Shown: positions 1-54,806 of the stretch, in pieces
Layout of the letters: the number at the start of each line of letters is the position of its first letter
How positions within the stretch are numbered: the stretch's first letter is position 1
Assembly (NCBI GenBank): GCA_963702475.1
Contig: CAVPCT010000006.1
Coordinates: forward strand, 128,001 to 192,000
Origin: an uncultured Thermoleophilia bacterium
GTDB lineage: Bacteria > Actinomycetota > Thermoleophilia > UBA2241
Length of the DNA stretch: 64,000 bases
Direction of reading: 5' to 3'
Translations under genes and position numbers: made by a program
Notes under the pieces: model-generated
What the model was told of the DNA's origin: nothing
Seen by the model: the letters and a program-made list of their open reading frames with translations, nothing else
Database searches by the model: none

Positions 1-2
1 CC

Positions 3-3301: not shown

Positions 3302-3313
3302 CCGGCCGCTGAC

Positions 3314-25371: not shown

Positions 25372-26043
25372 TCAGTCGAGGGTGATAAGCCCGGTGCGCA
25401 GCGCGTACTTCACGACTTCGGTCACGTCGTGCAGGTCGAGCTTGCGCATGGCGTTGGCCCGGTGCGTGTCGACAGTCTTGCGGCTGAGCCCCAGCAACTC
25501 GGCGATGCTGTTGTTGCTGTGGCCCTCGGCGATCAGCCGCAGCACCTCCCGCTCGCGTGCGCTCAGAGACTCGCCCGGCTCGTCCGGGCGCTCGTTGCCG
25601 GTCACGCGCAGGTAGTCGCCGATCAGTGTCGCGGCGATGGGCGGGTACAAGAAGGACCCTCCCGCGTGCACCTCGTGGATGGCGCGCACGAGGTCCTCCG
25701 TCACGACCCGCTTGAGCACGTACCCGCTGGCGCCGGCCTGGATGATCTGGACCACGTACTCCTGGTCGTCGTACATGCTCAGGATCAGCGTGCGCACCTC
25801 GGGGTGGCGCTCCTTGAGCAGGCGGGTGGCCTCCAGCCCGCTCATGCGCGGCATCACGATATCCATGATCACGACGTCGGGGTGGAGCTCGTCCACCCGC
25901 TCCAGCGCCTCCTGCCCGTCGCCGGCCTCACCCACCACGAGGATGTCCGGCTCGCGCGTGAGCAGCGCGTGGACGCCCTCGCGGAGGATGGCGTGGTCGT
26001 CCACGAGCAGCACGCGGATCGGGGCGGCTTTGCCGGCGGTCAC
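25372..26043 (-). CDS. NarL/LuxR-family response regulator
   Basis: VDDH, MDIVMP, GYVLK, LSAREREVL HTH. Confidence 0.93.
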   Translation of the reverse strand: MTAGKAAPIRVLLVDDHAILREGVHALLTREPDILVVGEAGDGQEALERVDELHPDVVIMDIVMPRMSGLEATRLLKERHPEVRTLILSMYDDQEYVVQIIQAGASGYVLKRVVTEDLVRAIHEVHAGGSFLYPPIAATLIGDYLRVTGNERPDEPGESLSAREREVLRLIAEGHSNNSIAELLGLSRKTVDTHRANAMRKLDLHDVTEVVKYALRTGLITLD

Positions 26044-27149
26044 GACGCCCCGTCCTGGTCCGCGGCGTCCGCCAGCGGGATCACCACGTAGAGGCGCGTG
26101 CCGCGCCCGACCGCCGACTCCACGTTCACGGTCCCCCCCAGCAGATCGACCCGTTCTCTCACCGACGCCAGACCGACGCCGCCCTGGGTGCTCCCCTTGA
26201 GCACGTCGTCGGGTACGAATCCTACTCCGTTGTCGATGATCGCAAGGTTCACGTAGCCGGGCCTGGTGACGAGACGCACGACGATCTTCGTGGCCGCCGA
26301 GTGTCTGACGGCGTTCGAGAGCGCCTCCTGGGTGATGCGGTACAGCGTGGTCTCCACATCTCCCGGGAGTCGCAAGTCCGCCTCGTCGAAGTCGGTGACC
26401 ACCTCGGGGCCCACGTCCTGCACATGGGACTGGATGTACCAGCGCAGGGTCGGCACCAGGCCGAAGTCGTCGAGCATCACCGGCCTCAGGTCGTACACGA
26501 GCAGCTTGATCTCCTCCATGGTGTGGCTCAGCAGCTCCTTGCAGGTGAGGACCTGGCGGTGGGCCTCGGTCGGGTCGTGATCCTGGAGGGCCCTGTCGCA
26601 GAGGTCCAGACGCACCAGCGTGGCGGCCAGCGTCTGGCTGGTCTGGTCGTGCAGCTCCCGGCCGATGCGGCGGCGCTCCTCCTCCACGCTGCCCAGCTGC
26701 CTGCCGGCGTACCGCAACGACTCGTCGCCCAGGCGGCGGCACATCTCGTTGAAGGACGCCGACAGCCGCCGCAGGTCCTTGTCCTTCCAGTCGTCCTTGA
26801 CGCGGCAGCCCAGCTCCCCGCGGTGCATCCCGCCCATCGCGCGCGCCAGGTCCTCGAGCAGGCCGCCCGCGGGCCCGACCAGCGCGAGGTTCACCAGCAC
26901 GGCGGCCAGCGCCGCGGCGAGCAGCAGGGCCACCAAGAGAAGGACGTGGTCGCTGTCCGTGGCCGAGACGATGACCGCGCTGGCGCCGGCCACGGCCGCG
27001 GCGAGCACGACGTTGGCGCCCACCACGCGCAGCACCATGGGGCGCCGGAACCGCGAGACCTCCTCGCGCGCTCGGCCGCGCGAGCGGTGAGCGGCCGCCT
27101 CACCTGCGTGCGCCGCCGCCCTCGGTACACTGGACGAGCTCTCGCTCAT
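26040..27149 (-). CDS. Membrane sensor histidine kinase (HAMP + HisKA_3)
   Basis: Two TM helices, HAMP region, ERRRIGRELHD, QEALSNAVRH, DNGVGF, GLASVRER. Confidence 0.92.
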   Translation of the reverse strand: MSESSSSVPRAAAHAGEAAAHRSRGRAREEVSRFRRPMVLRVVGANVVLAAAVAGASAVIVSATDSDHVLLLVALLLAAALAAVLVNLALVGPAGGLLEDLARAMGGMHRGELGCRVKDDWKDKDLRRLSASFNEMCRRLGDESLRYAGRQLGSVEEERRRIGRELHDQTSQTLAATLVRLDLCDRALQDHDPTEAHRQVLTCKELLSHTMEEIKLLVYDLRPVMLDDFGLVPTLRWYIQSHVQDVGPEVVTDFDEADLRLPGDVETTLYRITQEALSNAVRHSAATKIVVRLVTRPGYVNLAIIDNGVGFVPDDVLKGSTQGGVGLASVRERVDLLGGTVNVESAVGRGTRLYVVIPLADAADQDGAS

Positions 27150-28447
27150 GATCCGGGCAGATCCAGGGGCTGTGGCAGCTCGAAAGCGAACTCGGCCCAG
27201 GCGCCCTGCTCGGAGCGTGCCCGGATGCGCCCGTTGTGCAGCTGGACGATGCGCCAGGCGCTGTACAGGCCCACGCCGGTACCGCGCTTCGCCTCGCCTC
27301 GGGTGCGCAGTCGCGAGAACCGCTGGAACAGGCGCCCGCGGTCCTCGGGCGCGAACCCCGGGCCTTCGTTCCAGACCGAGATCTCCACCCGGGAGGGGTC
27401 CTTGACGGCGCGCACGCGGATGAGCCCGCCCTCGTTGCCGTACTTCACCGCGTTGCTGAGCAGGTTGGCCACGACGATGCGCAGCAGCCCTGGGTCGCAC
27501 TCGGCGGTGACGGTCTCGGGCGGCAGGTCCAGCTCGAGACGCATGCTCCGTCGCTCGATATCCGAGCGCACGAGGTCGAGCGACGGGGCGATGACCTCGG
27601 CGAGCACGTCCGCGTCCTGACGCCGGGACAGCGCAAGACCGCCGCCGTCGATGCGTGCCAGGTCCAGGTAGTCCTGCACGAGGCTGAGCAGGTACTCGCC
27701 CTTGCCGATCATGCGGTCGACCTTGTCGACCTGTCCGGGCTCCAGTTGCCCCAGGTAGCCCTGCGAGAGCAGGCGGGCGTCGGTCACCAGGGAGGCGATG
27801 GGGTTCTTGATCTCGTGACTGACGAACGCCAGCATCTCCAGATACGCCTGGTTGGCAGCTCGCAGCTGCTCGATCTGCCACGCCTTCTCCACCGCCTGGC
27901 TGAGGCGTTCGGAGATCGAGATCTCGAGCTCCACGTGGTGCGGCGTGAACGCCCTCGGGCTCCGCGAGTCCCGGAACATGAAGCCGAGTACCCGGCCTTC
28001 TACGATCAGCGGGCACGTGAGGCTGGAGCGCACCCCCTCCCTCACGAGGAGGTGGGAGGAGTGGCTGGCCGGGTGACCCTCGGCATGCAGCGAGAGGTCG
28101 TCGATGATCCTCGGCTCGGCGCTCTTGATGACGCGCTCGAGAGACGTGCCGCGAAGGTCGGCCGTGTAGCCCTTCGTGAGCAGCAGGGGCTGGTAGACGG
28201 CGCGCGCGTACTGAGCGATCACACGCTCGCCGCTCTCGTCCACGAACGCCAGTCCGATGCGGTCGCAGGGGATGATGCCGCGAGTGCGCTCGAAGAGGAA
28301 GTCGGCCACGTCGTTGAGCGACTGTTTGGCCGCGACCTTCTGGTTCACCATGCGCAGCGTCGCGCGTTCGTCGCCGCTGATCCTCTGGCGCGCGCCCCGA
28401 TCGCGGAACGGATCGAGATAGCGCAAGGTCGACTGCAGGCCCACCAT
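27146..28447 (-). CDS. Cytoplasmic GAF-domain sensor histidine kinase (HisKA)
   Basis: GAF (EGVRSSLTCPL), SHEIKNP, NLLSNAVKY, GTGVGL; no TM helix. Confidence 0.9.
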   Translation of the reverse strand: MVGLQSTLRYLDPFRDRGARQRISGDERATLRMVNQKVAAKQSLNDVADFLFERTRGIIPCDRIGLAFVDESGERVIAQYARAVYQPLLLTKGYTADLRGTSLERVIKSAEPRIIDDLSLHAEGHPASHSSHLLVREGVRSSLTCPLIVEGRVLGFMFRDSRSPRAFTPHHVELEISISERLSQAVEKAWQIEQLRAANQAYLEMLAFVSHEIKNPIASLVTDARLLSQGYLGQLEPGQVDKVDRMIGKGEYLLSLVQDYLDLARIDGGGLALSRRQDADVLAEVIAPSLDLVRSDIERRSMRLELDLPPETVTAECDPGLLRIVVANLLSNAVKYGNEGGLIRVRAVKDPSRVEISVWNEGPGFAPEDRGRLFQRFSRLRTRGEAKRGTGVGLYSAWRIVQLHNGRIRARSEQGAWAEFAFELPQPLDLPGS

Positions 28448-28651
28448 CCCCTCCGGCGTCGTCGCTCTGGGCGGCGATGACCGACCTGAGCCTCACTAGG
28501 AGCACCACCTGAGGCCCCATCGGCCGCTCCACACGGCCACGATAGCACTCCTCCGTGGTCTCGCAACGCCGTGAGGCCTCGGCGCGGACGCGAGGGAGAG
28601 TATCCGCGAGGCTGCGGCACCCACCCACTCCCTCGTGACGCGAGCCTGTTC

Positions 28652-28795: not shown

Positions 28796-30607
28796 ATGAG
28801 GATCGGAGTCTACGAGTGCCGGGCCGGCGGCGACGACAGCGACGGCGTGAACCTGGAGTCCGTCGCCCGTTACGTGGCCAACCTCCCCCAGGTAGAGGTC
28901 GTGCGGCAGCTGGGCGTGATGCCCAAGCTCGACCCCAAGATGCTCGCCGACGAGATCGCCGCGGAGCGCCTGGACCGGATCGTCATCGCCGGGGACTCCC
29001 CCGGCTTCTTCAAGCCTGCCTTCACGCGCGCCATGGCGCTGGCGGGGGGCGAACCGGACGAGGTGCGGCTCGCCTCGTTCCGCGAGCACGCCACGGGCGG
29101 GGAAGGCGCGACCGCGCGGGCCAAGGCCATCGCCGCGTGCGCGGTGTACGGCATCCCGTTCACGCTCGCTGCACAGCCGAAGGACACGAAGTGGGGCGCC
29201 GCCACTCTGGTCATCGGCGGCGGCATCGCGGGCATCCAGGCAGCCCTCGAGATCGCCGACGGCGGCAAGAAGGTCTACCTGGTCGAGCGCTCGGGCACCA
29301 TCGGCGGCCACATGGCCATGTTCGACAAGACCTTCCCCACGCTCGACTGCGCGGCCTGCATCCTGACCCCGAAGATGGTGGCCGTGGGCCAGCACGAGAT
29401 GATCGACCTCCTCACCTACTCCGAAGTCGAGTCGATCACCGGGGTCCCCGGGGCGTTCAAAGCCACGATCCTCAGACACGCACGCCGGGTGGATGAGGGC
29501 GCCTGCGTGGCCTGCGCCATGTGCAGTGACGTCTGCCCAGTCAGCGTGCCCAGTGAGTTCGACGCCGGCATCGCCGACCGCAAGGCCGTGTACATCCCCT
29601 TCCCGCAGGCGGTGCCCAACGCCTACCTCGTCGACGAAGCATCGTGCACCTACGTGCAGACCAACGGGCAGAAGTGCGGGGCGTGCGCGAAGAAGTGCCC
29701 CAAAGACTGCATCGACCTGGACGCGCACGGTGACGTCATGCAGGTCGAGGTCGGCAGCGTGATCGTGGCGACCGGCTACGAGACGCTCGACGCCGCGAGG
29801 ATCGGGCAATACGGCTACGGCGTGCACGCAAACGTCCTCACGGCCCTGGAGTTCGAACGGCTCACGAACGCGTCGGGCCCGACGGGCGGCCGTATCGTCA
29901 CCAAGACGCTGCGTCACAACAAGCGCAAGAAGGTCGACGAGTGGGTCTTCGATCCTGAGGGCGCCGCGCCGCGAAGCGTGGCCATCATCCACTGCGTGGG
30001 CTCTCGCGACACGAACTACAACGCCTACTGCTCCCGCGTGTGCTGCATGTACTCGCTCAAGTTCGCCCATCTCGTGAAGGAGAAGCTGCCCGAGGCGCCC
30101 TGCTACGAGTTCTACATCGACATGCGTGCGTTCGGCAAAGGCTACGAGGCCTTCTTCGAGCGCATCCAGGACGAAGGTACATTCATCATCAGGGGCCGTT
30201 CGGCGACGGTGACATCGCAGGACGGCCAGATGTACGTCAAGGGCGAGGACATCCTCAGCGACAGCGTCATGGAGTTCCCGGTGGACATGGTGCTGCTCGC
30301 CGTCGGCCTCGTGCCGGCAGATCGGTCGGACGAGCTCGCCGGGATGCTGAACATACCGCGCGACAGCTACGGATGGTTCACGGAGGCCGACTACAACGGC
30401 GATCCCACGGGCACGGAGCGGGGCGGTGTGTACGTCGCCGGCGTCTGCCAGGGCCCCAAGGACATCCCCGACACGGTTGCGCAGGCCTCTGCCGTCGCGG
30501 CACGGTCTCTTGAGGGCGCCATGACTGGACGGGGCCTCGAGAGCATGGCCAACGTGAGCCTCACGGACATCGAGGCTCGCGCCAAGAGCCTGGTCGCAAA
30601 GGCGTAG
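28796..30607 (+). CDS. hdrA: HdrA/QmoA-like flavoprotein (internal 2x[4Fe-4S], degenerate N-terminal cluster site)
   Basis: GGAGG RBS; GGGIAG, KTFPTLDCAAC, two ferredoxin motifs, LEFER, HCVGSR, CSRVCCMYSLK, GPKDIP. Confidence 0.9.
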   Translation: MRIGVYECRAGGDDSDGVNLESVARYVANLPQVEVVRQLGVMPKLDPKMLADEIAAERLDRIVIAGDSPGFFKPAFTRAMALAGGEPDEVRLASFREHATGGEGATARAKAIAACAVYGIPFTLAAQPKDTKWGAATLVIGGGIAGIQAALEIADGGKKVYLVERSGTIGGHMAMFDKTFPTLDCAACILTPKMVAVGQHEMIDLLTYSEVESITGVPGAFKATILRHARRVDEGACVACAMCSDVCPVSVPSEFDAGIADRKAVYIPFPQAVPNAYLVDEASCTYVQTNGQKCGACAKKCPKDCIDLDAHGDVMQVEVGSVIVATGYETLDAARIGQYGYGVHANVLTALEFERLTNASGPTGGRIVTKTLRHNKRKKVDEWVFDPEGAAPRSVAIIHCVGSRDTNYNAYCSRVCCMYSLKFAHLVKEKLPEAPCYEFYIDMRAFGKGYEAFFERIQDEGTFIIRGRSATVTSQDGQMYVKGEDILSDSVMEFPVDMVLLAVGLVPADRSDELAGMLNIPRDSYGWFTEADYNGDPTGTERGGVYVAGVCQGPKDIPDTVAQASAVAARSLEGAMTGRGLESMANVSLTDIEARAKSLVAKA

Positions 30608-30616
30608 GAGGGCCGC

Positions 30617-31786
30617 ATGGCTATCAGAGCCAATCCCAAACTCATCGAAGAGCTCGAGCCGTACGGGGCCGAGGACGTGATGAACTGCTACCACTGCGGC
30701 AACTGCTCCGCCGTGTGCCCGTTCTCCGCGGCTCCCTACGTGTTCCCGCGCAAGCCGATGCGCTACCTGCAGATGGGGCTCGAGAAGAAACTCGAGAGCC
30801 AACTGGACCCGTGGCTCTGCTACTACTGCGGCGAGTGCTCGGACCAGTGCCCTCGTGACGCCGAGCCCGGGGAGACGATGATGAGCCTGCGGCGCTGGCT
30901 CACCTCACGATACGACTGGACGGGGATCTCCCGGCTGTTCTACAAGTCGTGGCGCTGGGAGTTGGGGGCCATCATCCTGGTGGCCATCCTCACGGCCATC
31001 GGCTTCACCCTGTTCGGCATGTCCCAAGGCAGCCTGTCCGACTACGACGGCGCCAACGCCTTCCTGCCGAGTTCCGCCATCCACATCTTCGACTGGGTGC
31101 TGGCGGGAGTACTCCTCGTGTTCCTGCTCAGTAACGCGGCTCGCATGTGGTGGTTCACCATGGGCCGTGACAAGGAGCTGCCCACGACACTCGGCAGCTA
31201 CATCACGAGCGTGTGGATGCTGCCCACCCACTTCTTCACGCAGATGCGCTACAGCAAATGCGAGCGCAAGGCACCCTGGGTGACCCACCTGGCGCTCATG
31301 CTGAGCTACGTGACCATGCTGGTGCTCATCATGTTCTTCCTCAGCGAGATGGCGTCGGGGCCCGCCATCGACTGGACCGTGCACGTGTTCGGCTACCTCG
31401 CGACGGCAGGCCTCGTCCTGGCCACGATCCTCTTCCTGCGCAACCGCGTGAAGAAGTCCTCGGCTCAGTACAGGCACTCGCACGAGTCCGACTGGATCTT
31501 CCTCGTGCTGATCCTCGTCGTCGCGCTGACCGGCATCCTGCAGCACATCCTGCACCGCAGCGGCATGGACGCGGCCGCCAACATCACGTACGTCGTGCAT
31601 CTGGCCCTTGTCGTCCCGATGCTGGCGCTCGAGGTGCCCTTCAGCAAGTGGTCGCATCTCGCGTACCGCCCCCTGGCCATGTACCTGGGCCAGGTGCGCG
31701 CCACTGCCCTGGCCCGCGAAGGCGCGGGCGGAACCGCGGCGGCGCACAGAGGTGCCGAACCGCAGACGCAGGTCCACACGGCCTGA
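30617..31786 (+). CDS. QmoC-like subunit: HdrC-type 2x[4Fe-4S] domain fused to a cytochrome b-type membrane domain
   Basis: CYHCGNCSAVCP and WLCYYCGECSDQCP; about 6 TM helices with His residues; C-terminal PFSKWSHLAYRP. Confidence 0.8.
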   Translation: MAIRANPKLIEELEPYGAEDVMNCYHCGNCSAVCPFSAAPYVFPRKPMRYLQMGLEKKLESQLDPWLCYYCGECSDQCPRDAEPGETMMSLRRWLTSRYDWTGISRLFYKSWRWELGAIILVAILTAIGFTLFGMSQGSLSDYDGANAFLPSSAIHIFDWVLAGVLLVFLLSNAARMWWFTMGRDKELPTTLGSYITSVWMLPTHFFTQMRYSKCERKAPWVTHLALMLSYVTMLVLIMFFLSEMASGPAIDWTVHVFGYLATAGLVLATILFLRNRVKKSSAQYRHSHESDWIFLVLILVVALTGILQHILHRSGMDAAANITYVVHLALVVPMLALEVPFSKWSHLAYRPLAMYLGQVRATALAREGAGGTAAAHRGAEPQTQVHTA

Positions 31787-31799
31787 AGGGGGTGAAGAG

Positions 31800-33524
31800 A
31801 TGGAGGAGCCACGCATCGGCGTGTACATCTGTAACTGCGGTACGAACATCGCCAAGGTCGTCGATTGCGACGCCGTCGTGCAGGCCGCGTCCGCACTTCC
31901 CGGCGTCACCGTCGCCCGCTCGTACAAGTACATGTGTTCCAACCCCGGCCAGGAGATGATCGCTCAGGACATCGAAGACGAGGGCCTGGAGCGCGTCGTC
32001 GTGGCCGCGTGCAGCCCCAGGATGCACGAGCCCACGTTTCGACGCGCCGCCGAGTCGGCGGGCGTCAATTCGTATCTCGTGCAGATGGCCAACATCCGCG
32101 AGCAGTGCAGCTGGGTCCACGACGACCCGTTCCAGGCGACGGAGAAGGCCACCGACCTGGTGCGCGCGGCCGTGTACCGGGTCGCGCAGCATGAGCCTCT
32201 GGAGCGCATGTCCGTCGACATGTGCCCGAACACGCTGGTCGTGGGCGGCGGCATCGCCGGCCTGTCCGCCGCCCTGGAGCTCGCCGACGCGGGCAAGCTC
32301 GTGTATCTGGTCGAAAGAGAGCCGGCGCTGGGCGGCAACATCGGGCGCGTCGACCTGACGGCGCCCTACCTGGACTCGGCTCGTGACATGCTCACCGACC
32401 GCATCACGCGTGCCGTGGAGCACCCGCACGTGGAGATCATGGTCCAGACGGAGCTCGAGAAGCTCGAGGGGTTCGTCGGCAACTTCAAGGCCACCCTCGT
32501 CCACCGCTCCTCCGGTGAAGGACCACCACGACAGGTCGTCGACGTCGGCAGCGTCATCGTGTGCACCGGCTACAGAGAGTTCGACGCGTCCCGCGCGACC
32601 CACCTTGGCTACGGCAAGCTGCCCAACGTGATCACGTCCTTCGAGTTCGAGCGCATGCTGCGCCAGGGGCGCATCGAGATGAAGGACGGGCGTCTGCCCC
32701 AGTACGTGGCGGTGATCCATTGCGTCGGCAGCCGCAGCGAGGAGTTCAACGGATACTGCTCGAGGGTGTGCTGCATGACGGCGCTCAAGTACGCGCACGA
32801 GGTCAAGTCGGCGCTGCCCGGTAGCTACGTCTCGGACGTGTACATCGACATGCACGCGTTCGGCAAGGGCTGCGAGGACTTCTACCGGCACAGTGCCGAG
32901 GTCAAGACGCTGTTCCTGATGTACGGCAAGGGCGAGCATCCGGTGGTGCGGCGCGCCGACCCCGGCGACGACTGCGAGATGCTCATCACCGTCGACGAGC
33001 AGTTGTCGGGCGAGCAGATCGAGCTGCCGGCCGACCTCATCATCCTCATGGTCGGGATGGAGCCGCGAGAGGACGCCGAGGCGGTGACGCACCTCGTCAA
33101 CATCAGCCAGGACAAGGACGGCTGGTTCATCGAGAGCCACCCCAAGCTGGACCCCGTGGCGACGACGACCGACGGCATCTACATCGCCGGCGCCTGCCAG
33201 TCGCCGAAGGACATCCCCGACTCGGTCGCCCAGGCCCGCGCCGCCGCTGGGCGCATCCTGGGCAAGATCTCGCGCGGCAAGCTCGAGATCGACGCGATGT
33301 TCGCGGCCGTCGACGAGGACCGCTGCTCCGGCTGCCGGGTGTGCAACGAGATCTGCCCGTACTCGGCCATCGAGTTCGACGAGACGAAGAAGCGCAGCCA
33401 CGTGATCAGCGCACTGTGCAAGGCGTGCGGTGCCTGCGTGGCCACCTGTCCGTCGGCGGCCATCAAGGCGAGGCACTTCACCGACCAACAGATCTTCGCC
33501 GAGATCGCGGGGGTGCTGGCATGA
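31800..33524 (+). CDS. hdrA: Second HdrA/QmoB-like flavoprotein (C-terminal 2x[4Fe-4S])
   Basis: IGVYICNCG, ACSP, NIREQCSWVH, GGGIAG, FEFER, CSRVCCMTALK, CSGCRVC..CP, CKACGAC..CP. Confidence 0.9.
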   Translation: MEEPRIGVYICNCGTNIAKVVDCDAVVQAASALPGVTVARSYKYMCSNPGQEMIAQDIEDEGLERVVVAACSPRMHEPTFRRAAESAGVNSYLVQMANIREQCSWVHDDPFQATEKATDLVRAAVYRVAQHEPLERMSVDMCPNTLVVGGGIAGLSAALELADAGKLVYLVEREPALGGNIGRVDLTAPYLDSARDMLTDRITRAVEHPHVEIMVQTELEKLEGFVGNFKATLVHRSSGEGPPRQVVDVGSVIVCTGYREFDASRATHLGYGKLPNVITSFEFERMLRQGRIEMKDGRLPQYVAVIHCVGSRSEEFNGYCSRVCCMTALKYAHEVKSALPGSYVSDVYIDMHAFGKGCEDFYRHSAEVKTLFLMYGKGEHPVVRRADPGDDCEMLITVDEQLSGEQIELPADLIILMVGMEPREDAEAVTHLVNISQDKDGWFIESHPKLDPVATTTDGIYIAGACQSPKDIPDSVAQARAAAGRILGKISRGKLEIDAMFAAVDEDRCSGCRVCNEICPYSAIEFDETKKRSHVISALCKACGACVATCPSAAIKARHFTDQQIFAEIAGVLA

Positions 33525-33955
33525 GCGTCGAACCGAGGATCGTCGCGTTCCTCTGCAACTGGTGCTCGTACTCCGGCGCCGACCTCGCCGGCACGAGCCG
33601 TATCCACTACCAGGCGAACGTACGCGTGATCCGAGTGATGTGCTCGGCGCGCATCGACCCGACCTTCGTGATCAAGGCCCTCGCCGACGGCGCCGACGGC
33701 GTGCTCGTCTGCGGCTGCCATCCCGGCGACTGCCACTACTCAGAGGGCAACTACAAGACGATGCGGCGCATGCCGCTGCTCAAGCGTATGCTCACGGACT
33801 TCGGCATCAAGGACGAGCGCGTGCGGCTCGAGTGGGTCAGCGCCAGCGAAGGAATGCGCTTCGCCGACATCGTGGACGACATGACGGAACGCCTGCGGGC
33901 GCTGGGCCCGAGCCGCGTCAAGGTGGCGCTGGCCAACGACGCGGTGGAGAGGTGA
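33521..33955 (+). CDS. mvhD: MvhD/FlpD [2Fe-2S] subunit
   Basis: FLCNWCSY, RVMCS, GCHPGDCHY, WVSASEG. Confidence 0.95.
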   Translation: MSVEPRIVAFLCNWCSYSGADLAGTSRIHYQANVRVIRVMCSARIDPTFVIKALADGADGVLVCGCHPGDCHYSEGNYKTMRRMPLLKRMLTDFGIKDERVRLEWVSASEGMRFADIVDDMTERLRALGPSRVKVALANDAVER

Positions 33956-34923
33956 GCCAGGTGAGCGAGAAACTCCAGATCGCGCTCTACTGGGGCGCCG
34001 CGTGCGGCGGCTGTGACGTCGCGGTCCTGGACACCAACGAGTTCATCCTCGACGTGGCCGCCGCCGCCGACATCCGCCTCTGGCCGATCGCGGTCGACGG
34101 CAAGTACGCGGACGTGGAGGCGATGGAAGACGGCGAGCTCGATCTGACCATCTTCAACGGGGCGGTGCGCAACGCGGAGAACGAGCACATCGCCAAGCTG
34201 CTACGTCAGAAGAGCAAGCTGATGGTGGCCTTCGGGTCGTGCGCCCATCTCGGCGGCATCCCTGGTCTTGCCAACCTGGTGTCCAGGGAAGAGATCATGA
34301 CCGCCGCATACCTTCACAATCCCAGCATCGAGAAGGGGAACACCACACTGCCACGCCCGGAGACGGGCACCAACGGCACGATGCTGACCATCCCGACGTT
34401 CTACAAGCGCGTCTACAAGCTCGACGACATCGTGCCCGTCGACTACTACGTCCCCGGGTGCCCGCCGGCCGCCGACCAGGTCAAGGCGGTCCTTCTTGCG
34501 GTGGTCGGCGGCCAGCTGCCGCCCAAGGGCTCGGTCGTGGGCGCCGGCGACACGGCCCTGTGTGACGAGTGCGCCCGCACCAAGTCCGAGAAGAAGTTGA
34601 AGGAGTTCCATCGTCCGTGGCAGATCATGATCGACCCCGAGGCGTGCCTCCTGGAGCAGGGCGTGCTGTGCGCTGGCGTGGCCACGCGCGCGGGCTGCGG
34701 CGCTCGCTGTCCGAGCAGCGGCATCCCGTGCCGCGGCTGCTACGGGCCGCTCCCCGGCGTGATCGACCAGGGCGCCAAGCTGCTCTCCGCCGTCGTGTCC
34801 GTGATCGACAGCAACGACCCGGCGGAGATCGAGACGATCCTCGACGGCCTTCCCGACTTTGCGGGGTTCGCCTACCGGTTCAGCGTGCCCGCCTCGCTGC
34901 TGCAAAGGAGCGTCCGCCAATGA
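33952..34923 (+). CDS. mvhG: Group 3c [NiFe]-hydrogenase small subunit
   Basis: ACGGC, FGSCA, PGCPP, CDEC, CLLEQG..C, CGARCP..PCRGCYG. Confidence 0.92.
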   Translation: MSQVSEKLQIALYWGAACGGCDVAVLDTNEFILDVAAAADIRLWPIAVDGKYADVEAMEDGELDLTIFNGAVRNAENEHIAKLLRQKSKLMVAFGSCAHLGGIPGLANLVSREEIMTAAYLHNPSIEKGNTTLPRPETGTNGTMLTIPTFYKRVYKLDDIVPVDYYVPGCPPAADQVKAVLLAVVGGQLPPKGSVVGAGDTALCDECARTKSEKKLKEFHRPWQIMIDPEACLLEQGVLCAGVATRAGCGARCPSSGIPCRGCYGPLPGVIDQGAKLLSAVVSVIDSNDPAEIETILDGLPDFAGFAYRFSVPASLLQRSVRQ

Positions 34924-36386
34924 GCAGGAAGATCAGCATCGATCCCATCACCCGCCTCGAGGGCCACGGCAAGATCGAGATCTTCCTCGACGACACCGGG
35001 GCGGTGCAGGACTGCTACTTCCAGATCCCCGAGTTGCGCGGCTTCGAGCGCTTCGTCGTGGGCCGTCCGATCGAGGAACTGCCGCGCCTCGTGACGCGCA
35101 TCTGTGGCGTCTGCCCGGCCAGCCACCACATGGCCAGCGCCAAGGCCGTGGACGGCTGCTTCGGCGGCGAGGTGGCTCCGCTGGCCGTGAAGCTCCGCCG
35201 CATGTACTACAACGCGCACTACATCCACAGCCACATCGCCCACTTCTACGCCCTGGCGGCGCCCGACTTCGTACTCGGGCCCGATGCCGACCCGGCCATC
35301 CGCAACGTTCTCGGTGTGGTGGCCAAGGTCGGGCTCGAGATCGGAGGCGCCGTGATCGCCTCGCGCGGCAAAGCGCAGGAGATCCAGCGCATCATCGGGG
35401 GGCGCTCCACCCAGGACATCTGGTGCATCCCGGGGGGCGTCGCCAAGGGCCTCAAGAAGGACGAACTGGAGCAGATCAGGCCCATGGTGGCCGAACTGTA
35501 CGACTTCACCCAGTTCTCGCTGCAGCTGTTCCGGGACATCGTCCTCGCCAACCCGACCTACCTGGACATCATCGCCAACGGCCCTTACACCCTGGACGTG
35601 CAGAACATGGGGCTCGTGGACGAGCACAACGCTCCGGACTTCTACGACGGTCAGGTGCGCGTGGTCGACTTCGAAGGCACGGAGATCTGCCGCTACGAGC
35701 CGCACCAGTACGCCGACTACGTGGCGGAGCACGTCGAGCCTTGGTCGTACCTCAAGTTCCCGTACCTCAAGCAGCGCGGCTGGAAGGGGTTCGTGGAGGG
35801 CATCGGCAGCTCCATCTACTGCGCCACACCGCTCGCCCGTCTCAACGTCGCCGACCGCATGGCGACGCCCCGGGCCCAGGAGGCCTACGAGGAGATGTTC
35901 GCGGCGCTCGGTGGGCACCCCAGCCGCATGCTCCTCGCCCAGCACTGGGCGCGGCTCGTGGAGATGGTCCAGAACGCCGAGGCGCTGCAGCAGTACTGCG
36001 ACGACCCCGAGATCACCGGCGATGCCTACCGCGTCATTCCCCAGCAGGTCACCGGTGAGGGGTTCGGCATCGTGGAGGCCATGCGCGGCACGCTGACGCA
36101 CCACTACACGTGCGACGAGAACGCCATCTGCACCAGCGCCAACCTGATCGTGGGCACGACCAACAACAACGCGCCCATCCAGATGGTCACGCGCAAGGTC
36201 GCCGAGACCCTGATCCAGCCGGGTGTGGAACCGGACCAGGGGATCCTCAACATGGTCGAGATGGCCTTTCGCGCCTTCGACCCCTGCTACAGCTGCGCGA
36301 CACACAGTCTTCCGGGCCAGATGCCCATGCGCGTGCGCGTGCACCGGGGCGGGGAGGTGACACATGACTTCAGGCGCGGCTGCTGA
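34920..36386 (+). CDS. mvhA: Group 3c [NiFe]-hydrogenase large subunit
   Basis: TRLEGH, L1 RICGVC, L2 DPCYSCATH plus a cleavable C-terminal tail. Confidence 0.95.
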   Translation: MSRKISIDPITRLEGHGKIEIFLDDTGAVQDCYFQIPELRGFERFVVGRPIEELPRLVTRICGVCPASHHMASAKAVDGCFGGEVAPLAVKLRRMYYNAHYIHSHIAHFYALAAPDFVLGPDADPAIRNVLGVVAKVGLEIGGAVIASRGKAQEIQRIIGGRSTQDIWCIPGGVAKGLKKDELEQIRPMVAELYDFTQFSLQLFRDIVLANPTYLDIIANGPYTLDVQNMGLVDEHNAPDFYDGQVRVVDFEGTEICRYEPHQYADYVAEHVEPWSYLKFPYLKQRGWKGFVEGIGSSIYCATPLARLNVADRMATPRAQEAYEEMFAALGGHPSRMLLAQHWARLVEMVQNAEALQQYCDDPEITGDAYRVIPQQVTGEGFGIVEAMRGTLTHHYTCDENAICTSANLIVGTTNNNAPIQMVTRKVAETLIQPGVEPDQGILNMVEMAFRAFDPCYSCATHSLPGQMPMRVRVHRGGEVTHDFRRGC

Positions 36387-36434: not shown

Positions 36435-36917
36435 ATGAGGACCCTGCTCCTCGGCATGGGCAATCCGATCCTGACCGACGACGCCATCGGCATCCGCGCG
36501 GCACGCTCCATCAGGGAGAGGCTGGGGCCGGTCCCCGGCCTCTCCTGCGTGGAGGAGTGCTGCACCGGCGGTCTGGAGCTGCTCGACATCGTCGAGGGGT
36601 TCGACCGCCTCATCATCCTGGATTCGATCAAGACCGAGGGGGGCGATCCGGGAGACTGGTATCGCTTCGACGGCACAGCGCTGCGCGACACCATGCACCT
36701 GGACAACGTGCACGACGCCAACTTCGCCACCGCGATGGAGCTCGGCCGCCGCATGGGTGTGCACGTGCCGGCCGACGGGGACATCCACATCCTCGCCGTG
36801 GAGATCAGTGATAACCTCACGTTCTCCGATCGTCTCAGTCCGGCGTTGCAGGCTGCGTTGCCGGACCTCATCGATGAGCTGTACGCAGAGACACGAGCCC
36901 TCCTCGACACCTCCTGA
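36435..36917 (+). CDS. Hydrogenase maturation protease
   Basis: LGMGNPILTDDAIG motif; directly after mvhA. Confidence 0.92.
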   Translation: MRTLLLGMGNPILTDDAIGIRAARSIRERLGPVPGLSCVEECCTGGLELLDIVEGFDRLIILDSIKTEGGDPGDWYRFDGTALRDTMHLDNVHDANFATAMELGRRMGVHVPADGDIHILAVEISDNLTFSDRLSPALQAALPDLIDELYAETRALLDTS

Positions 36918-36921
36918 ACAG

Positions 36922-39447
36922 GTGAGCGCCGGCGGCAGCGCCGGCTCCTCTTCTGCGCGTCCCGCCGCAGCCCGCCTCTGGGCGCGCGGCGTGGTGCAGG
37001 GCGTCGGGTTCCGGCCTTTCATCTACTCGCTGGCGAAGCACCACGGCCTCGCCGGGTGGGTGCGCAACACGTCCGCCGGCGTGGAGATCCACGTCGAAGG
37101 CCCCGGCGACGCGGTCGAGGCGTTCGTGACCGCCCTGCCGCGCGAGGCGCCGTCGCGGGCCTACGTCGCCGAGCTCGCCCGCGACCCGGCCGAGCCGGAG
37201 GGCGCGGCCGGGTTCGTGATCCTCGAGAGCGCCGTGGCGCCCGGCGAGTACCAGCTCGTGTCGCCGGACATCGCCACCTGCGACGACTGTCGCCGCGAGC
37301 TGCTCGACCCGCAGGACCGCCGCTTCCGGTACCCCTTCACGAACTGTACGAACTGCGGTCCGCGCTTCACGCTCATCGAGGGGCTGCCGTACGACCGCGA
37401 CCGCACCACCATGCGGCGGTTCCCCATGTGCGCCGCGTGCCGCCGGGAGTACGAGGACCCGCTCGACCGCCGCTTTCACGCCGAACCCACCGCCTGTCCG
37501 GTGTGCGGGCCGCGCGCGGAGCTGCTGACGCGCGCGGCGGACGGCACGGCGGAGGTGCAGGCGACGGGCACGACGGAGGACCCGGGCGCGGCGGTCCGCG
37601 CCGCCGCCGCCCTCCTGCGCGACGGCTGGATCCTGGCGGTGAAGGGCCTAGGCGGCTTCCATCTGGCCTGCGACGCCACCGATGGCGACGCCGTGCGCCG
37701 CCTCAAGGCGCGCAAGCGTCGCCCGCACAAGCCGCTGGCGGTGATGGTCGCCGGCGTCGACGAGCTGCTCCGCTACTGCCGGGTGACCGCCGAGGAGGAG
37801 GAGCTCCTGACGTCGCCGGAGCACCCGATCGTCCTGCTCGAGTGGCGCGACATCGGGCCCGCCGGCGAGCCGGGGCCGGAGGTCGCCGGCGCTGGCGACG
37901 GCGAGCAGCCGGCCGGCGAAGCGGCGCCGGCCGGCCGGCCGGCGCCCATCGACCCCGAGGTCGCCGTGGGCCAGCGCTACCTCGGCGTCATGCTGCCGTA
38001 CACGCCGCTCCACATCCTGCTCCTCCGGGAGGCCGGACGCCCCCTGGTCATGACCAGCGGCAACCTGGCGGAGGAGCCGATGGTCAAGGACTGGGAGGAG
38101 GTCCAGCGCCTCGCGGACATCGCGGACGCCTACCTGGTGCACGACCGGGCCATCGCCGCGCGCTGCGACGACTCGGTCGCGCAGGTGCACCGCGGGCGGC
38201 CGCGGCTTGTGCGCCGGGCGCGCGGCTACGCCCCGTTCCCCCTGCCCCTGCCGCGGCCCCTGCCCCAGGTGCTGGCCTGCGGCGCGGAGCTCAAGAACAC
38301 CTTCTGCCTCACGCGCGACGCCAACGCCTTCCTCAGCCCGCACATCGGTGATCTGGAGAACCTGGAGACGCTGGAGAGCTTCGAGGAGGGCATCGGCGAC
38401 TACCGCCGGCTCTTCGACATCGATCCCGAGGTGGTCGCGCACGACCTGCACCCCGAGTATCTTGGGACCAAGTACGCGTTGGCGCTGTCCGGGGAGAAGG
38501 TGGCGGTCCAGCACCACCACGCCCACGTCGCGGCGGCGATGGTGGAGGCCGGCCTCGAGGACCCCGTGATCGGGGTGAGCCTGGACGGCCTCGGGTACGG
38601 CGACGACGGCGTGCTGTGGGGCGGGGAGGTGCTCGTGTGCGACCTCACCGGCTACCGGCGGGTCGCACACCTGGAGGAGCTCCCGCTGCCCGGCGGCGCG
38701 CTGGCCATCCGCCGGCCCTGGCGCACGGCGCTCGGCTGGTCGCTGGCGGCGCTCGGCCCCGACGGCCTGGAGCGCGCGACGCGGCTGCTGTGCTCCTCCG
38801 CGCACAGCGCTGAGGAGCCGCCCGACGGCGAGGCCGTCCAGACGCTCGTGCGGCAGGTGGAGACCGGCACCAACGCCCCACTCACGACGAGCTGTGGCCG
38901 GCTCTTCGACGCGGTCGCGGCGCTGGCCGGCGTCCGCCTCGCGATCAGCTACGAGGGGCAGGCGGCGATCGAGCTGGAGATGCGCTCGCGTCCGGGCGAG
39001 GCGCCCTACCCGTACGCGCTCGACGGCGACCCCGGCGCGGCCCCAGAGGCGCCGCTGCTGCCGGCCGCCGCGCACGTCGAGGAGGGCGGCGAGGCCGGCG
39101 CCCGGCCGGCCGTCGTCCGCGTGGCGCCGCTGCTCGCCGGCGTCCTCGACGACGCCGAGGCCGGCCGGCCCGCCGGCCTGGTCGGTGGTCGCCTGCACGC
39201 CACGCTGGCGGCGCTGGTCGTCGACGTGTGCCGCCGGGTGCGCGCCACGACCGGTCTCGAGGTCGTGGCTCTGACCGGCGGCGTCTTCCAGAACCGGCTC
39301 CTCGCCGGGCTCTGCGAGGACGCCCTGGGCGGCGAGGGCTTCCGCGTGATCGGCGGGAGTCTCGTGCCGGTCAACGACGGAGGCATCGCGTTGGGGCAGG
39401 CCGCCGTGGCAGGCTATACTTTGCTCCTTCGTCGCAGCGAGCTCTGA
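36922..39447 (+). CDS. hypF: Carbamoyltransferase HypF
   Basis: GVVQGVGFRPF, two CxxC zinc fingers, KGLGGFHLAC, QHHHAH, DGGIALGQ. Confidence 0.95.
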   Translation: MSAGGSAGSSSARPAAARLWARGVVQGVGFRPFIYSLAKHHGLAGWVRNTSAGVEIHVEGPGDAVEAFVTALPREAPSRAYVAELARDPAEPEGAAGFVILESAVAPGEYQLVSPDIATCDDCRRELLDPQDRRFRYPFTNCTNCGPRFTLIEGLPYDRDRTTMRRFPMCAACRREYEDPLDRRFHAEPTACPVCGPRAELLTRAADGTAEVQATGTTEDPGAAVRAAAALLRDGWILAVKGLGGFHLACDATDGDAVRRLKARKRRPHKPLAVMVAGVDELLRYCRVTAEEEELLTSPEHPIVLLEWRDIGPAGEPGPEVAGAGDGEQPAGEAAPAGRPAPIDPEVAVGQRYLGVMLPYTPLHILLLREAGRPLVMTSGNLAEEPMVKDWEEVQRLADIADAYLVHDRAIAARCDDSVAQVHRGRPRLVRRARGYAPFPLPLPRPLPQVLACGAELKNTFCLTRDANAFLSPHIGDLENLETLESFEEGIGDYRRLFDIDPEVVAHDLHPEYLGTKYALALSGEKVAVQHHHAHVAAAMVEAGLEDPVIGVSLDGLGYGDDGVLWGGEVLVCDLTGYRRVAHLEELPLPGGALAIRRPWRTALGWSLAALGPDGLERATRLLCSSAHSAEEPPDGEAVQTLVRQVETGTNAPLTTSCGRLFDAVAALAGVRLAISYEGQAAIELEMRSRPGEAPYPYALDGDPGAAPEAPLLPAAAHVEEGGEAGARPAVVRVAPLLAGVLDDAEAGRPAGLVGGRLHATLAALVVDVCRRVRATTGLEVVALTGGVFQNRLLAGLCEDALGGEGFRVIGGSLVPVNDGGIALGQAAVAGYTLLLRRSEL

Positions 39448-39473
39448 CCTCCCACTCGGATCGGACGCCGCCC

Positions 39474-39722
39474 ATGTGCCTTGCCATCCCCATGCGTATC
39501 CTCTCGGTCGACGGCGACCTGGCCACCATCGCGGTCGAGGGCCTCGAACAGCGCGCCAGCCTGGCGCTCGTGCCTCACGCCGGCGTCGGTGACTGGGTGC
39601 TGGTGCACGCGGGCTACGCGATCAACGTGCTCCCCGAGGACGAGGCTCTCGAGACGCTCGAGCTCATCGCACAACTCGACGATCCCGACCAGCCGGAGCG
39701 CGTGGACGGGCATGAAGGCTGA
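39474..39722 (+). CDS. hypC: Hydrogenase chaperone HypC
   Basis: MCLAIP, VLVHAGYA. Confidence 0.95.
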   Translation: MCLAIPMRILSVDGDLATIAVEGLEQRASLALVPHAGVGDWVLVHAGYAINVLPEDEALETLELIAQLDDPDQPERVDGHEG

Positions 39723-40773
39723 GGCACTGCACCGCCTCGCCGCCGACCTCGCCGCCGAGGTGGGCGACGGCGGCACGTTCATGGAGGTCTGCGGCACCCA
39801 CACCATGGCCATCGCGCGCTTCGGACTGCGCGAGCTGCTGCCGCCGGGCATCCGTCTCGTCTCCGGCCCGGGCTGCCCGGTGTGCGTGACGGCCATGCGC
39901 GACCTCGACACCGCGGTCGCGCTCTGCGCTCTGCCCGAGGTGACGGTCACGACCTTCGGCGACCTCATCCGCGTGCCGGCCTCGCGCACGTCCCTGGCGG
40001 TCGCGCGCGCCGCCGGCGCCGACGTGCGCGTGGTCTACTCGGCGCGCGACGCCGTCGAGCTGGCGGCCGCCGAGCCGTCGCGCGAGGTGGTCTTCGTCGG
40101 TATCGGCTTCGAGACCACCGCGCCCACGGTGGCCGCAGCCATCGTCGAGGCGCGCAACCGCGGTGTGCGCAACTTCTCCGTGCTCGCGCTGCACAAGACC
40201 ATGCCGCCGGCGCTCAGGGCCCTGCTCGACCTCGGCGAGACGCCCATCGCCGGATTCCTGCTGCCCGGGCACGTGAGCGTGATCACCGGCACGGCCTGCT
40301 ACGGGTTCCTCGCCGCCGAGTACGGCGTCGCCGGGGTGGTGGCCGGCTTCGGGCCCGACGACGTCCTCGAGGCCCTGCTCATGCTCGTGCGGCAGACGGC
40401 CCCGGCCGTCGCGAACCAGTACACGAGGGCCGTGCAGCCGCAGGGCAACACGGTCGCGCAGGAGCTCATGGACGTGGTGTTCGAGCCGCGCGACGCCGAC
40501 TGGCGTGGCCTGGGCGTGCTCCCCGGCTCGGGGCTCGGCCTGCGTGCCGAGTTCGCCGATCACGACGCGGCGGTGCGCTTCGACGTCGATCCCGGAGAAT
40601 CGCTCGAGCCGGCCGGCTGCCGTTGCGGCGAGGTCCTGCGCGGCCTCACCGATCCGGCCGAGTGCGCCCTCTTCGGACGGCGCTGCACTCCCGAGGATCC
40701 GGTCGGTGCCTGCATGGTCAGCAGCGAGGGGGCGTGCGCCGCCCGCTACAGATTCCGGGGACTCGATGACTGA
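39712..40773 (+). CDS. hypD: Hydrogenase maturation protein HypD
   Basis: MEVCGTHT, GPGCPVC, GFETT, PGHVS, CMVSSEGAC. Confidence 0.95.
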   Translation: MKAEALHRLAADLAAEVGDGGTFMEVCGTHTMAIARFGLRELLPPGIRLVSGPGCPVCVTAMRDLDTAVALCALPEVTVTTFGDLIRVPASRTSLAVARAAGADVRVVYSARDAVELAAAEPSREVVFVGIGFETTAPTVAAAIVEARNRGVRNFSVLALHKTMPPALRALLDLGETPIAGFLLPGHVSVITGTACYGFLAAEYGVAGVVAGFGPDDVLEALLMLVRQTAPAVANQYTRAVQPQGNTVAQELMDVVFEPRDADWRGLGVLPGSGLGLRAEFADHDAAVRFDVDPGESLEPAGCRCGEVLRGLTDPAECALFGRRCTPEDPVGACMVSSEGACAARYRFRGLDD

Positions 40774-41785
40774 AGGCCCCGGCGACCGCATCCTGCTCGG
40801 TCACGGCAGCGGCGGCAAGCTCTATCGCGACCTCGTCCGCGACGTGTTCGTGTCGGCCTTCGCCAACCCCGTGCTCTCGCGGCTCGACGACGCGGCCGTA
40901 CTGGCGCCGTCCGGCCGCGTCGCCTTCACCACCGACAGCCACGTCGTCCGGCCGCTGCGCTTTCCCGGCGGCGACATCGGCCGCCTCGCGGTGGCCGGCA
41001 CGGTGAACGACCTGGCCACGGCGGCGGCGCGGCCGCTGGCGCTGGCCGCCGCCTTCGTCATCGAGGAAGGCTACCTTGTCGCCGACCTGCGCGAGGTGTG
41101 CGCCTCGATGGCGGCCACCGCGGACGAAGCGGGCGTGCCCATCGTCACCGGCGACACCAAGGTGGTCGAGCGCGGCGCCTGCGACGGCCTGTACATCACC
41201 ACGACAGGCGTGGGCGAGGTCGTGGTGCCGCACGACTTGGGAGCCGCGACGGTGCGCGACGGCGACGCCGTCATTCTCAGCGGCGGCATCGGCGACCACG
41301 CCGTGGCGGTGCTCGCCGCGCGCGGCGAGTTCCACTTCCGCACCCCTGTGGAGAGCGACTGCGCCCCCTTGTGGAAGCTCGTGGCCGCCGCCGTGGCGGC
41401 CGCCGGCCCGGGGTTGCGCTTTCTGCGCGACCCCACTCGCGGCGGCCTCACCACCGTGCTCGCCGAGCTCGCCGAGGAGTCGGGTCTGGGCGTCGAGATC
41501 GAGGAGGAGTCCATCCCGGTCGCACCCGGCGTGCGCTCGGTGTGCGACCTGCTGGGCCTCGACCCGCTGACCCTCGCCAACGAGGGCAAGATGGTGCTGG
41601 TGACGGCGGCCGAGACCGCGGACGCGGTGGTCGCCGCCGTGCGCGCCGCGCCGTACGGCGCTCAGGCGCGGCGCATCGGCTTCGTCACCGCCGCGCACGG
41701 AGGCCGCGTGGCGCTCCGCACGGAGTTCGGCACGCGGCGCGTGCTCGACATGCCCGTCGGGGAGCTCCTGCCGCGCATCTGCTGA
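40766..41785 (+). CDS. hypE: Carbamoyl dehydratase HypE
   Basis: HGSGG, GDTKVV, RDPTRGG, C-terminal PRIC. Confidence 0.95.
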   Translation: MTEGPGDRILLGHGSGGKLYRDLVRDVFVSAFANPVLSRLDDAAVLAPSGRVAFTTDSHVVRPLRFPGGDIGRLAVAGTVNDLATAAARPLALAAAFVIEEGYLVADLREVCASMAATADEAGVPIVTGDTKVVERGACDGLYITTTGVGEVVVPHDLGAATVRDGDAVILSGGIGDHAVAVLAARGEFHFRTPVESDCAPLWKLVAAAVAAAGPGLRFLRDPTRGGLTTVLAELAEESGLGVEIEEESIPVAPGVRSVCDLLGLDPLTLANEGKMVLVTAAETADAVVAAVRAAPYGAQARRIGFVTAAHGGRVALRTEFGTRRVLDMPVGELLPRIC

Positions 41786-41886
41786 CGCCGCAGGCGCGCG
41801 CGCCGCGGCGACGGGCGGAGGCCTCGTGCGCGGGCCGCGTCCGCGGCGGCAAGCCGGACCATCCGGACACAGAGAAAGGGGACCCG

Positions 41887-42240
41887 GTGCACGAATTGGG
41901 CATCACCCAGGGAATCGTCGACCGCGCCCGTGAGGCTGCCGTCGCGAACGGCGCGAAAAAGGTCACCGACGTGTACATCCTCATGACGCCTGCCGCCGAC
42001 TTCACTGAGGACTCGATCGCCATGTTCTTCGAGATGATGACGCAGGACGACGACCTCTTCCGGGGCGCCAGGCTGCACGTGGAGCACATGCCGGTTCCGG
42101 CGGTGTGCCTGGACTGCACTCACGAGTTCAGCGCTGACACGACCGAGCCGGTGTGTGCCAAGTGCGGGTCGCAGAACGTGCGTTTCGACCCCGAGGCCCC
42201 GATGATCCAGCTCACGGACATCGGCGTCGAGGAGGAGTGA
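41887..42240 (+). CDS. hypA: Nickel metallochaperone HypA
   Basis: (M)HELGI, CLDC...CAKC. Confidence 0.9.
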   Translation: MHELGITQGIVDRAREAAVANGAKKVTDVYILMTPAADFTEDSIAMFFEMMTQDDDLFRGARLHVEHMPVPAVCLDCTHEFSADTTEPVCAKCGSQNVRFDPEAPMIQLTDIGVEEE

Positions 42241-54795: not shown

Positions 54796-54806
54796 GGCGG
54801 CGCGGC

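Follow-up and report, generated by a model that had tools for sequence, protein, structure and literature searches.

In the archaeon Candidatus (Ca.) Methanoglobus nevadensis, Buessecker et al. (bioRxiv 10.1101/2022.12.01.518715) described "a fascinating gene cluster" in which Mvh hydrogenase subunits are encoded together with two HdrA homologs and a QmoC-HdrC fusion. The passages of that preprint devoted to the cluster report a genome without AprAB, Sat and DsrAB, and speculate on how electrons might move, with H2, ferredoxin and menaquinone alike. In Ca. M. hypatiae the same cluster, named Mvh-Qmo-Hdr, was expressed at 995–2,431 reads per kilobase per million (RPKM), and the authors, in the corresponding part of their text, hypothesised bifurcation of H2 electrons to menaquinone and ferredoxin and called for future studies (bioRxiv 10.1101/2023.09.08.556235). 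A bacterial operon of this kind is described here. It lies at positions 28796–36386 of a 64,000-nucleotide stretch of DNA, referred to as the window, from an uncultured Thermoleophilia bacterium of soil or sediment (assembly GCA_963702475.1, contig CAVPCT010000006.1, positions 128,001 to 192,000), and consists of hdrA1, a qmoC-like gene, hdrA2, mvhD, mvhG and mvhA. These genes probably encode a single complex that connects H2 with the quinone pool; the chances that this complex also bifurcates electrons to ferredoxin, or confurcates them from it, are about evenly balanced.

Several earlier lines of work bear on such an operon. Ramos et al. (2012; PMC3333476), in the passages on the Qmo complex, treated QmoC as a fusion of HdrC and HdrE, stated that menaquinol alone cannot drive adenosine 5′-phosphosulfate (APS) reduction, and counted a hydrogenase among the possible third partners of Qmo. 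A scheme of five domains has been laid out for HdrA, with an N-terminal cluster, a FAD domain that also holds a cluster, and inserted and C-terminal ferredoxin domains; the same sections propose the residues E356 and K409 as markers of bifurcating HdrA proteins (PMC12054007). A precedent for quinone as the high-potential acceptor in flavin bifurcation, as set out in the part of the source concerned with it, is FixABCX (PMC5861303). The initial annotation of the window knew of no biochemical characterisation of this gene set. That statement agrees with the open-access literature, in which neither a biochemical study of these genes nor an account of their distribution in bacteria was found, while the same hypothesis is in print for Ca. 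Methanoglobus in the passages cited above.

The window has a G+C content of about 70%. The six genes run head to tail on the + strand, and the string as first annotated is confirmed by coordinates and family matches. The first gene, hdrA1 (28796..30607, +), encodes an HdrA-type FAD flavoprotein of 603 residues that matches NF040770 at E 3e-163, and hdrA2 (31800..33524, +) encodes a second one of 574 residues, matching the same model in two stretches (E 2.5e-184). Between them lies the qmoC-like gene (30617..31786, +), the product of which has 389 residues, an HdrC-like domain and six predicted membrane helices. The remaining genes are mvhD (33521..33955, +; 144 residues), for the [2Fe-2S] adaptor between hydrogenase and HdrA (PF02662, E 2e-55, 186 bits; VhuD, E 3e-40); mvhG (33952..34923, +; 323 residues), for the small subunit of a [NiFe]-hydrogenase (PF01058); and mvhA (34920..36386, +; 488 residues), for a large subunit of the F420-non-reducing (Mvh/Vhu) type. 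A gap of 9 nucleotides separates hdrA1 from the qmoC-like gene and one of 13 nucleotides separates the latter from hdrA2; three start/stop overlaps of 4 nucleotides follow, so the tight coupling noted earlier also stands. Ribosome-binding sites of the GGAGG type precede hdrA1 and the qmoC-like gene. On sequence comparison, with matches far beyond chance, the family assignments of the six proteins are judged unambiguous.

The top NCBIfam model for MvhA is VhuA (359 bits, E 2.5e-107, below its cut-off of 800), and the closest solved chains are the MvhA/VhuA subunits of F420-non-reducing hydrogenases, 9sw2_F (385 bits) and 5odc_F (370 bits). Both cysteine pairs are present in MvhA, in the motifs RICGVC and DPCYSC, and these cysteines are conserved in its orthologs. 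MvhG matches VhuG at E 2e-62, below the cut-off of that model, and its twelve cysteines are conserved in 41 of 41 sequences; inspection of its translated N-terminus showed no twin-arginine signal. The cysteines of MvhD are likewise conserved in 50 orthologs.

The two HdrA proteins complement each other. HdrA1 aligns with residues 5–562 of the solved HdrA 5ODC_A and stops short of the C-terminal ferredoxin domain. The DCxxC pair (C194/C197) is retained, as is the inserted ferredoxin domain with its two clusters, and the cysteines of the N-terminal cluster are gone. HdrA2, aligned with 8RVU_a, keeps the cysteines of the N-terminal cluster and, at the C-terminus, the ferredoxin domain with two clusters; this alignment and the motif table show neither the inserted ferredoxin domain nor equivalents of C194/C197. 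Both proteins have the cluster cysteines of the flavin domain. Both also have the glutamate of the EFER motif and the lysine of CCMxxxK, which had been pointed out in the initial annotation and are borne out by the alignments: the HdrA1 pair aligns with E356 and K409 of 5ODC_A, counted along the alignment, and the HdrA2 pair with the same motifs of 8RVU_a.

The same division was seen in the orthologs. Among 49 HdrA1 sequences, that of the window included, no column has cysteine in more than 20% of the sequences where the window has none, and the N-terminal cluster cysteines are therefore missing throughout the orthologs. The eight cysteines of the inserted domain and both equivalents of C194/C197 are conserved in these 49 sequences; in 47 HdrA2 sequences the N-terminal cysteines and the eight of the C-terminal ferredoxin domain are conserved. 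The equivalents of E356 and K409 are conserved at 98–100% in both sets. Judged from these alignments, the complementary loss of domains is a pattern of the orthologs as a whole and no local decay.

The QmoC-like protein matches the qmoC model NF038018 almost end to end (E 5e-57, 193.9 bits, model positions 4–358 of 360), below the curated equivalog cut-off of 300 bits. All 13 relatives tested score 169–199 bits on this model, including one from a locus with Apr genes (L040). Its N-terminal HdrC-like domain has two complete CxxCxxCxxxCP motifs, and the best solved sequence relatives of this domain are HdrC chains. An AlphaFold2 model, with a mean predicted local distance difference test score (pLDDT) of 84.5, has six long membrane helices. 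In 76 QmoC-like sequences the two CxxCxxCxxxC motifs are conserved at 0.97–1.0, as are, in the membrane part, eight histidines at positions 156, 205, 224, 256, 289, 313, 328 and 347. In the predicted helices these histidines would lie near both faces of the membrane, an arrangement that would suit two bis-histidine hemes, and the membrane domain is a putative di-heme cytochrome b with a quinone site. A fold search of 48,161 representative chains with the model put EtfD of Mycobacterium smegmatis on top (Z 10.8, 217 residues aligned), followed by NarI of Escherichia coli (Z 9.4, 188 aligned) and the superoxide oxidase CybB (Z 8.9), all of which we take to be heme-b membrane proteins. As a separate observation, Cys215 of the QmoC-like protein (window 31259-31261) is invariant in 76 of 76 sequences; it is predicted to lie beside the conserved His205, in a cytoplasmic loop joining membrane helices 2 and 3.

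At least 2805 QmoC-like homologs were found at E ≤ 0.001 among 7998 candidates scored, and the closest among the matches listed are named after Thermoleophilia metagenome-assembled genomes. Gene neighbourhoods were compared for the best 80 of 150 relatives from a scan of species-representative genomes with the QmoC-like protein. The order qmoC-hdrA2-mvhD-mvhG-mvhA was present in 43 of these 80 loci, 40 with hdrA1 upstream and 3 cut by a contig end; 4 loci had hdrA1-qmoC-hdrA2 without a hydrogenase, 19 had other orders, and 14 were uninformative owing to contig ends. The initial annotation had allowed that similar gene strings may exist in other genomes, and the passages on Ca. Methanoglobus describe a counterpart. 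By the titles of their records, on which these counts rest and in which bin labels may be wrong, 25 of the 43 Mvh-linked loci belong to Actinomycetota and the other 18 to Acidobacteriota, Myxococcota, Bdellovibrionales, Eisenbacteria, Fibrobacteraceae, Latescibacterota, Krumholzibacteriota, Brocadiaceae or unclassified bacteria. Across these phyla the MvhA proteins are 74–95% identical, which suggests that the whole module has moved laterally. One locus labelled Deltaproteobacteria (L021) has genes 85% identical to the Thermoleophilia versions, and for this reason the contig may be mis-binned.

Within the class, MvhA was matched at E ≤ 1e-100 in 34 of 201 genomes sampled. In 20 of them the identity is 79–100% and the match belongs to the subtype of the window; in the other 14 it is only 46–55%, and the match represents a second, classical Mvh. 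A classical mvhA-mvhG-mvhD-hdrA set, 45–63% identical, was also observed divergently upstream of the cluster (positions ~1–4500) in five loci of Thermoleophilia relatives (L050, L060, L061, L074 and L084), with HdrB-like matches of 23–24% identity nearby in L050, L060 and L061. An MvhA ortholog in another genome (G050, C4:738047-738775) has an internal TAG stop.

The core of the operon also occurs with other partners. All five hydrogenase-less loci with enough upstream sequence have, ahead of hdrA1, genes for an MvhD-like protein, a 265-residue protein, a Fer4_22 protein and an NAD-binding flavoprotein of the DHODB type. The 265-residue protein, encoded between the MvhD-like and Fer4_22 genes (L030, L031, L048, L069 and L090), is conserved and has no Pfam match. 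Locus L040 has aprB-aprA, qmoA, qmoB and sat together with a QmoC 64% identical to the QmoC-like protein of the window. A quick tree by maximum likelihood was built from 75 QmoC sequences; L081 was dropped from it (a 963-residue ORF-extension artefact), and L040 entered it cut back to 362 residues. Proteins linked to Mvh, Flx-like, GltD and QmoAB partners are intermingled in this tree, with 7 changes of label where the minimum is 4. A single clade of QmoC proteins has thus swapped partners several times. The genome of the window has a paralogous qmoC-like gene of its own on another contig (C4:336114-342792, locus L099), which encodes 434 residues and scores 182 bits on the qmoC model; it follows HdrA-type genes and a gene for an MvhD/GltD-like flavoprotein, and hydrogenase genes are absent there. 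The same arrangement, with the addition of TusA and DsrE-like genes, was seen at locus L034.

The assembly, estimated as 93.8% complete and 6.5% contaminated, has 9 contigs that total 4.3 Mb. In a sequencing run of conjectural RNA origin (X20), contig pieces 90–99% alike were present in all 30 bins, and this is not taken as evidence on expression. Searches of this genome gave no aprA over the cut-off (best 45 bits against 642), which upholds the initial annotation where it saw no AprAB nearby, and no match to dsrA. An ATP-sulfurylase match is present on contig C7 (57881-58515), broken up among three reading frames, either as a possible pseudogene or through a possible error of assembly. On the same contig, proteins with CCG domains are encoded 6–13 kb from it. 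Menaquinone genes, for which the initial annotation had proposed a search, were found in the form of the futalosine route: MqnC and MqnE score over their cut-offs, and there are also a gene of the MqnA/D family, one for a polyprenyl synthase, and UbiX; the menA model found nothing in the genome. Other genes of the genome encode subunit I of a heme-copper oxidase, a further hydrogenase, which is of the sulfhydrogenase type, and a CdhC/AcsB acetyl-CoA synthase (212 bits), a consumer of reduced ferredoxin.

These observations are best explained by a mechanism in which the products of the six genes would form a single membrane-anchored complex. The cytoplasmic MvhAG would oxidise H2 and pass electrons through MvhD to the flavin of an HdrA1/HdrA2 heterodimer. 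From there the high-potential branch would lead through the iron-sulfur domain of the QmoC-like protein and the membrane hemes b to menaquinone, at −75 mV according to the passages of PMC3333476 on redox potentials, and the low-potential branch would lead to ferredoxin at about −500 mV, compared with −414 mV for H2. Overall, 2 H2 + menaquinone + oxidised ferredoxin would give menaquinol + reduced ferredoxin. The HdrA dimer of methanogens is symmetric, and the complementary losses in the two HdrA proteins would leave one copy of each of its wires. When the complex takes up H2, the reduced ferredoxin would be usable by acetyl-CoA synthase; the reaction would be reversible, and the formation of H2 from menaquinol and reduced ferredoxin is equally possible on paper. 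The initial annotation had proposed this transfer of H2 electrons to ferredoxin and menaquinone. The part of its proposal that concerns a membrane-linked Mvh/HdrA/QmoC-like complex fits the anatomy of the operon, its conservation across phyla, the lack of aprA and dsrA, and the menaquinone pathway.

The part that concerns ferredoxin is less secure, and a number of points weigh against bifurcation by a complex of this kind. The QmoA and QmoB homologs encoded at L040 and L032 have equivalents of E356 and K409 too, and for that reason the marker residues are weak evidence for bifurcation. The operon has no ferredoxin gene, and it is unclear from the passages of the HdrA literature consulted which ferredoxin-like domain of the HdrA proteins would serve which branch. 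Complex formation, the hemes, the quinone site and ferredoxin coupling are all features that we infer. For the membrane domain, Z-scores of 9–11 are modest for a helical bundle and may mirror only a common arrangement of helices; Foldseek gave no match in the Protein Data Bank (PDB) for the QmoC-like model at E ≤ 0.001, and the sequence profile of the membrane domain matched no solved chain even at E 10. As a result heme ligands are not assignable by alignment. A further point is that a second set of hdr genes in the window, on the minus strand and with HdrB and HdrC, could in principle take the electrons of the Mvh hydrogenase.

That second set figures in one of the alternatives to be weighed. 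In a classical Mvh:Hdr arrangement the hydrogenase and the downstream HdrB and HdrC would reduce some disulfide, and the QmoC-like protein would be a side outlet or unrelated. The hdr operon concerned lies at 43567-53767 on the minus strand, 7–17 kb downstream of mvhA. It has a HdrB-like gene with CCG domains at ~52160-53767 (NF041780, 339 bits, cut-off 450), a gene for a 1170-residue HdrA with an inserted NAD(P)H domain of the GltD type (PRK12771, 515 bits), another for a 924-residue HdrA-MvhD fusion, and two for HdrC-like proteins; CCG-domain matches number 22 in the genome. The initial annotation, which saw no HdrB nearby, was therefore right for the operon, since no CCG-domain HdrB is encoded between 28796 and 36917, and has to be qualified for the window, where the HdrB-like gene lies 15.8 kb from mvhA. 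However, the minus-strand operon brings its own input module, the HdrA with the GltD insert, and its own fused MvhD, and a HdrB-like match of 22–25% identity was found in the flanks of only 6 of the 43 Mvh-linked loci; these flanks reach 10 kb at most, short of the distance in the window. For these reasons the minus-strand operon was treated as a probably independent system. The qmoC gene, moreover, is held between two hdrA genes in 40 of 40 complete loci, and a classical arrangement is considered improbable. The minus-strand operon is followed by hemE and a gene of the amine-oxidase family, possibly HemY-like (53731-57439).

A plain H2:menaquinone oxidoreductase, or a quinol-driven producer of H2, in which the HdrA proteins are wires and ferredoxin is not involved, accounts equally well for all of the support for a link between H2 and quinone. 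The marker residues do not discriminate against it, and it would fit an operon that lacks a ferredoxin gene. On the other hand, a wire made of two FAD flavoproteins, in which the residues of the flavin site are fully conserved and cluster sites number seven, would be costly; ordinary uptake hydrogenases are known to reach quinone via cytochrome b alone. The drop in potential from H2 to menaquinone, with the values given above and within what the cited passages supply, would also go unused. On balance this alternative is regarded as unlikely, though less so than the classical arrangement. A true Qmo role, in which electrons from quinol, with or without those of H2, would go to APS reductase or another sulfur enzyme, draws on the close likeness of the QmoC-like protein to the QmoC of L040, which sits in an aprB-aprA ... 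qmoA-qmoB-sat ... qmoC cluster, on the hydrogenase suggested as a possible third Qmo partner in the passages of Ramos et al. (2012), and on the ATP-sulfurylase fragments of contig C7. Against it stand the genome searches, with no aprA, no dsrA and only a frame-split ATP-sulfurylase, and the identity of only 27–34% that HdrA1 and HdrA2 share with QmoA and QmoB at L040 and L032. A sulfur-linked role was consequently rated low, as highly improbable.

A broader proposal concerns hdrA1-qmoC-hdrA2 itself, which might be a laterally mobile chassis, a split HdrA heterodimer on a QmoC anchor, that couples quinone and ferredoxin by bifurcation and accepts interchangeable donors through MvhD. These donors would be Mvh in the window, a module for NAD(P)H of the Flx-like kind in relatives from Acidobacteriota and Anaeromyxobacter, and a GltD-type module in the paralogous branch. 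This proposal is offered tentatively and may well prove wrong. If it is true, respiring soil and sediment bacteria would have a general means of obtaining low-potential ferredoxin from H2 or NAD(P)H, paid for by quinone reduction, and, in the reverse direction, would dispose of quinol electrons as H2.

The idea that H2 reduces ferredoxin and menaquinone together is plausible and was already published as a hypothesis for the archaeal counterpart. What is added here is the wide distribution of the operon in bacteria, a conserved division of HdrA functions between two proteins, and a common HdrA-QmoC core on which donor modules are exchanged. If the bifurcating complex is real, it would add hydrogen-driven, quinone-dependent flavin bifurcation to bacterial energy metabolism, explain the purpose of many bacterial Mvh-type hydrogenases without HdrB, and give genetic weight to the old idea of a third, low-potential partner of Qmo. 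It would also tie the cycling of H2 to CO2 fixation that depends on ferredoxin, both in uncultured Thermoleophilia and in further lineages common in sediments and soils. The cluster is compact and widely conserved, which makes it tractable for expression, spectroscopy and cryo-electron microscopy.

The genes around the operon include those for maturation of the hydrogenase. Downstream of mvhA on the + strand, a hydrogenase maturation endopeptidase (36435..36917; TIGR00072, 84 bits, cut-off 47) is followed by hypF, hypD, hypE and hypA (36757..42240), assigned by Pfam HypF domains, HypD, AIRS/AIRS_C and HypA with ORF limits only; there is space for a small hypC ahead of hypD. An endopeptidase gene is found 3′ of mvhA in most of the related loci. 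Upstream, on the opposite strand, are two possible regulators. A GAF-domain sensor histidine kinase (27146..28492, −; Pfam GAF, HisKA and HATPase_c) is divergent from hdrA1, and has homologs upstream of the cluster in 19 of the 43 Mvh-linked loci, 8 of them close relatives (73–87% identity) and 11 weaker. A LuxR-type response regulator (25372..26742, −; Pfam Response_reg and GerE) is given by its ORF limits; its true start is probably at ~26.0 kb, since the domains begin near residue 244 of the ORF. Homologs of this regulator lie upstream of the cluster in 14 of the 43 loci, mostly in Thermoleophilia.

The individual parts of the operon resemble several known systems to different degrees. EtfD, which transfers electrons from ETF to menaquinone, is the best structural match of the QmoC-like membrane domain, and the likeness is limited to that fold. 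FixABCX, which according to the source passages couples NADH to flavodoxin or ferredoxin and to ubiquinone, is a working analogy only, with unrelated flavoproteins of the ETF type and another donor. FlxABCD-HdrABC of Desulfovibrio is a further system for comparison; here the likeness concerns the hydrogenase-less sister loci and not the operon of the window, and consists in domain content only, namely the MvhD-like, iron-sulfur and NAD-binding flavoprotein genes before hdrA1-qmoC-hdrA2.

With MvhADG-HdrABC of methanogens (5ODC, 8RVU, 9SW2) the operon shares MvhA, MvhG, MvhD and the flavin domain of HdrA, at 370–534 bits, and an HdrC-like two-cluster domain. It differs in that HdrB, and hence the heterodisulfide site, is lacking, the HdrC-like domain is fused to a six-helix membrane domain, and two HdrA proteins with complementary losses stand in for the single HdrA of five domains. 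QmoABC of sulfate reducers likewise has two HdrA-related flavoproteins and a QmoC of the same architecture, with a model match from end to end, and mvhD directly follows hdrA2 in the window as an MvhD-like domain follows QmoB. In contrast to QmoABC, the QmoC-like protein falls below the curated cut-off (194 against 300 bits), the genome has no aprBA over the cut-off, the gene order is A-C-B instead of A-B-C, a hydrogenase is encoded in the operon, and HdrA1 and HdrA2 resemble the HdrA of methanogens more closely than they do QmoA and QmoB. The Mvh-Qmo-Hdr cluster of Methanoglobus has the same list of parts, MvhAGD, two HdrA proteins and a QmoC/HdrC fusion with cytochrome b, a likeness that rests on the published descriptions and not on the archaeal sequences, gene order or split-domain pattern. 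As those passages describe them, the archaeal genomes also lack AprAB and DsrAB, and the same reaction from H2 to menaquinone and ferredoxin was proposed. Unlike Methanoglobus, the host of the window is a Thermoleophilia-like bacterium with genes for a heme-copper oxidase and an acetyl-CoA synthase.

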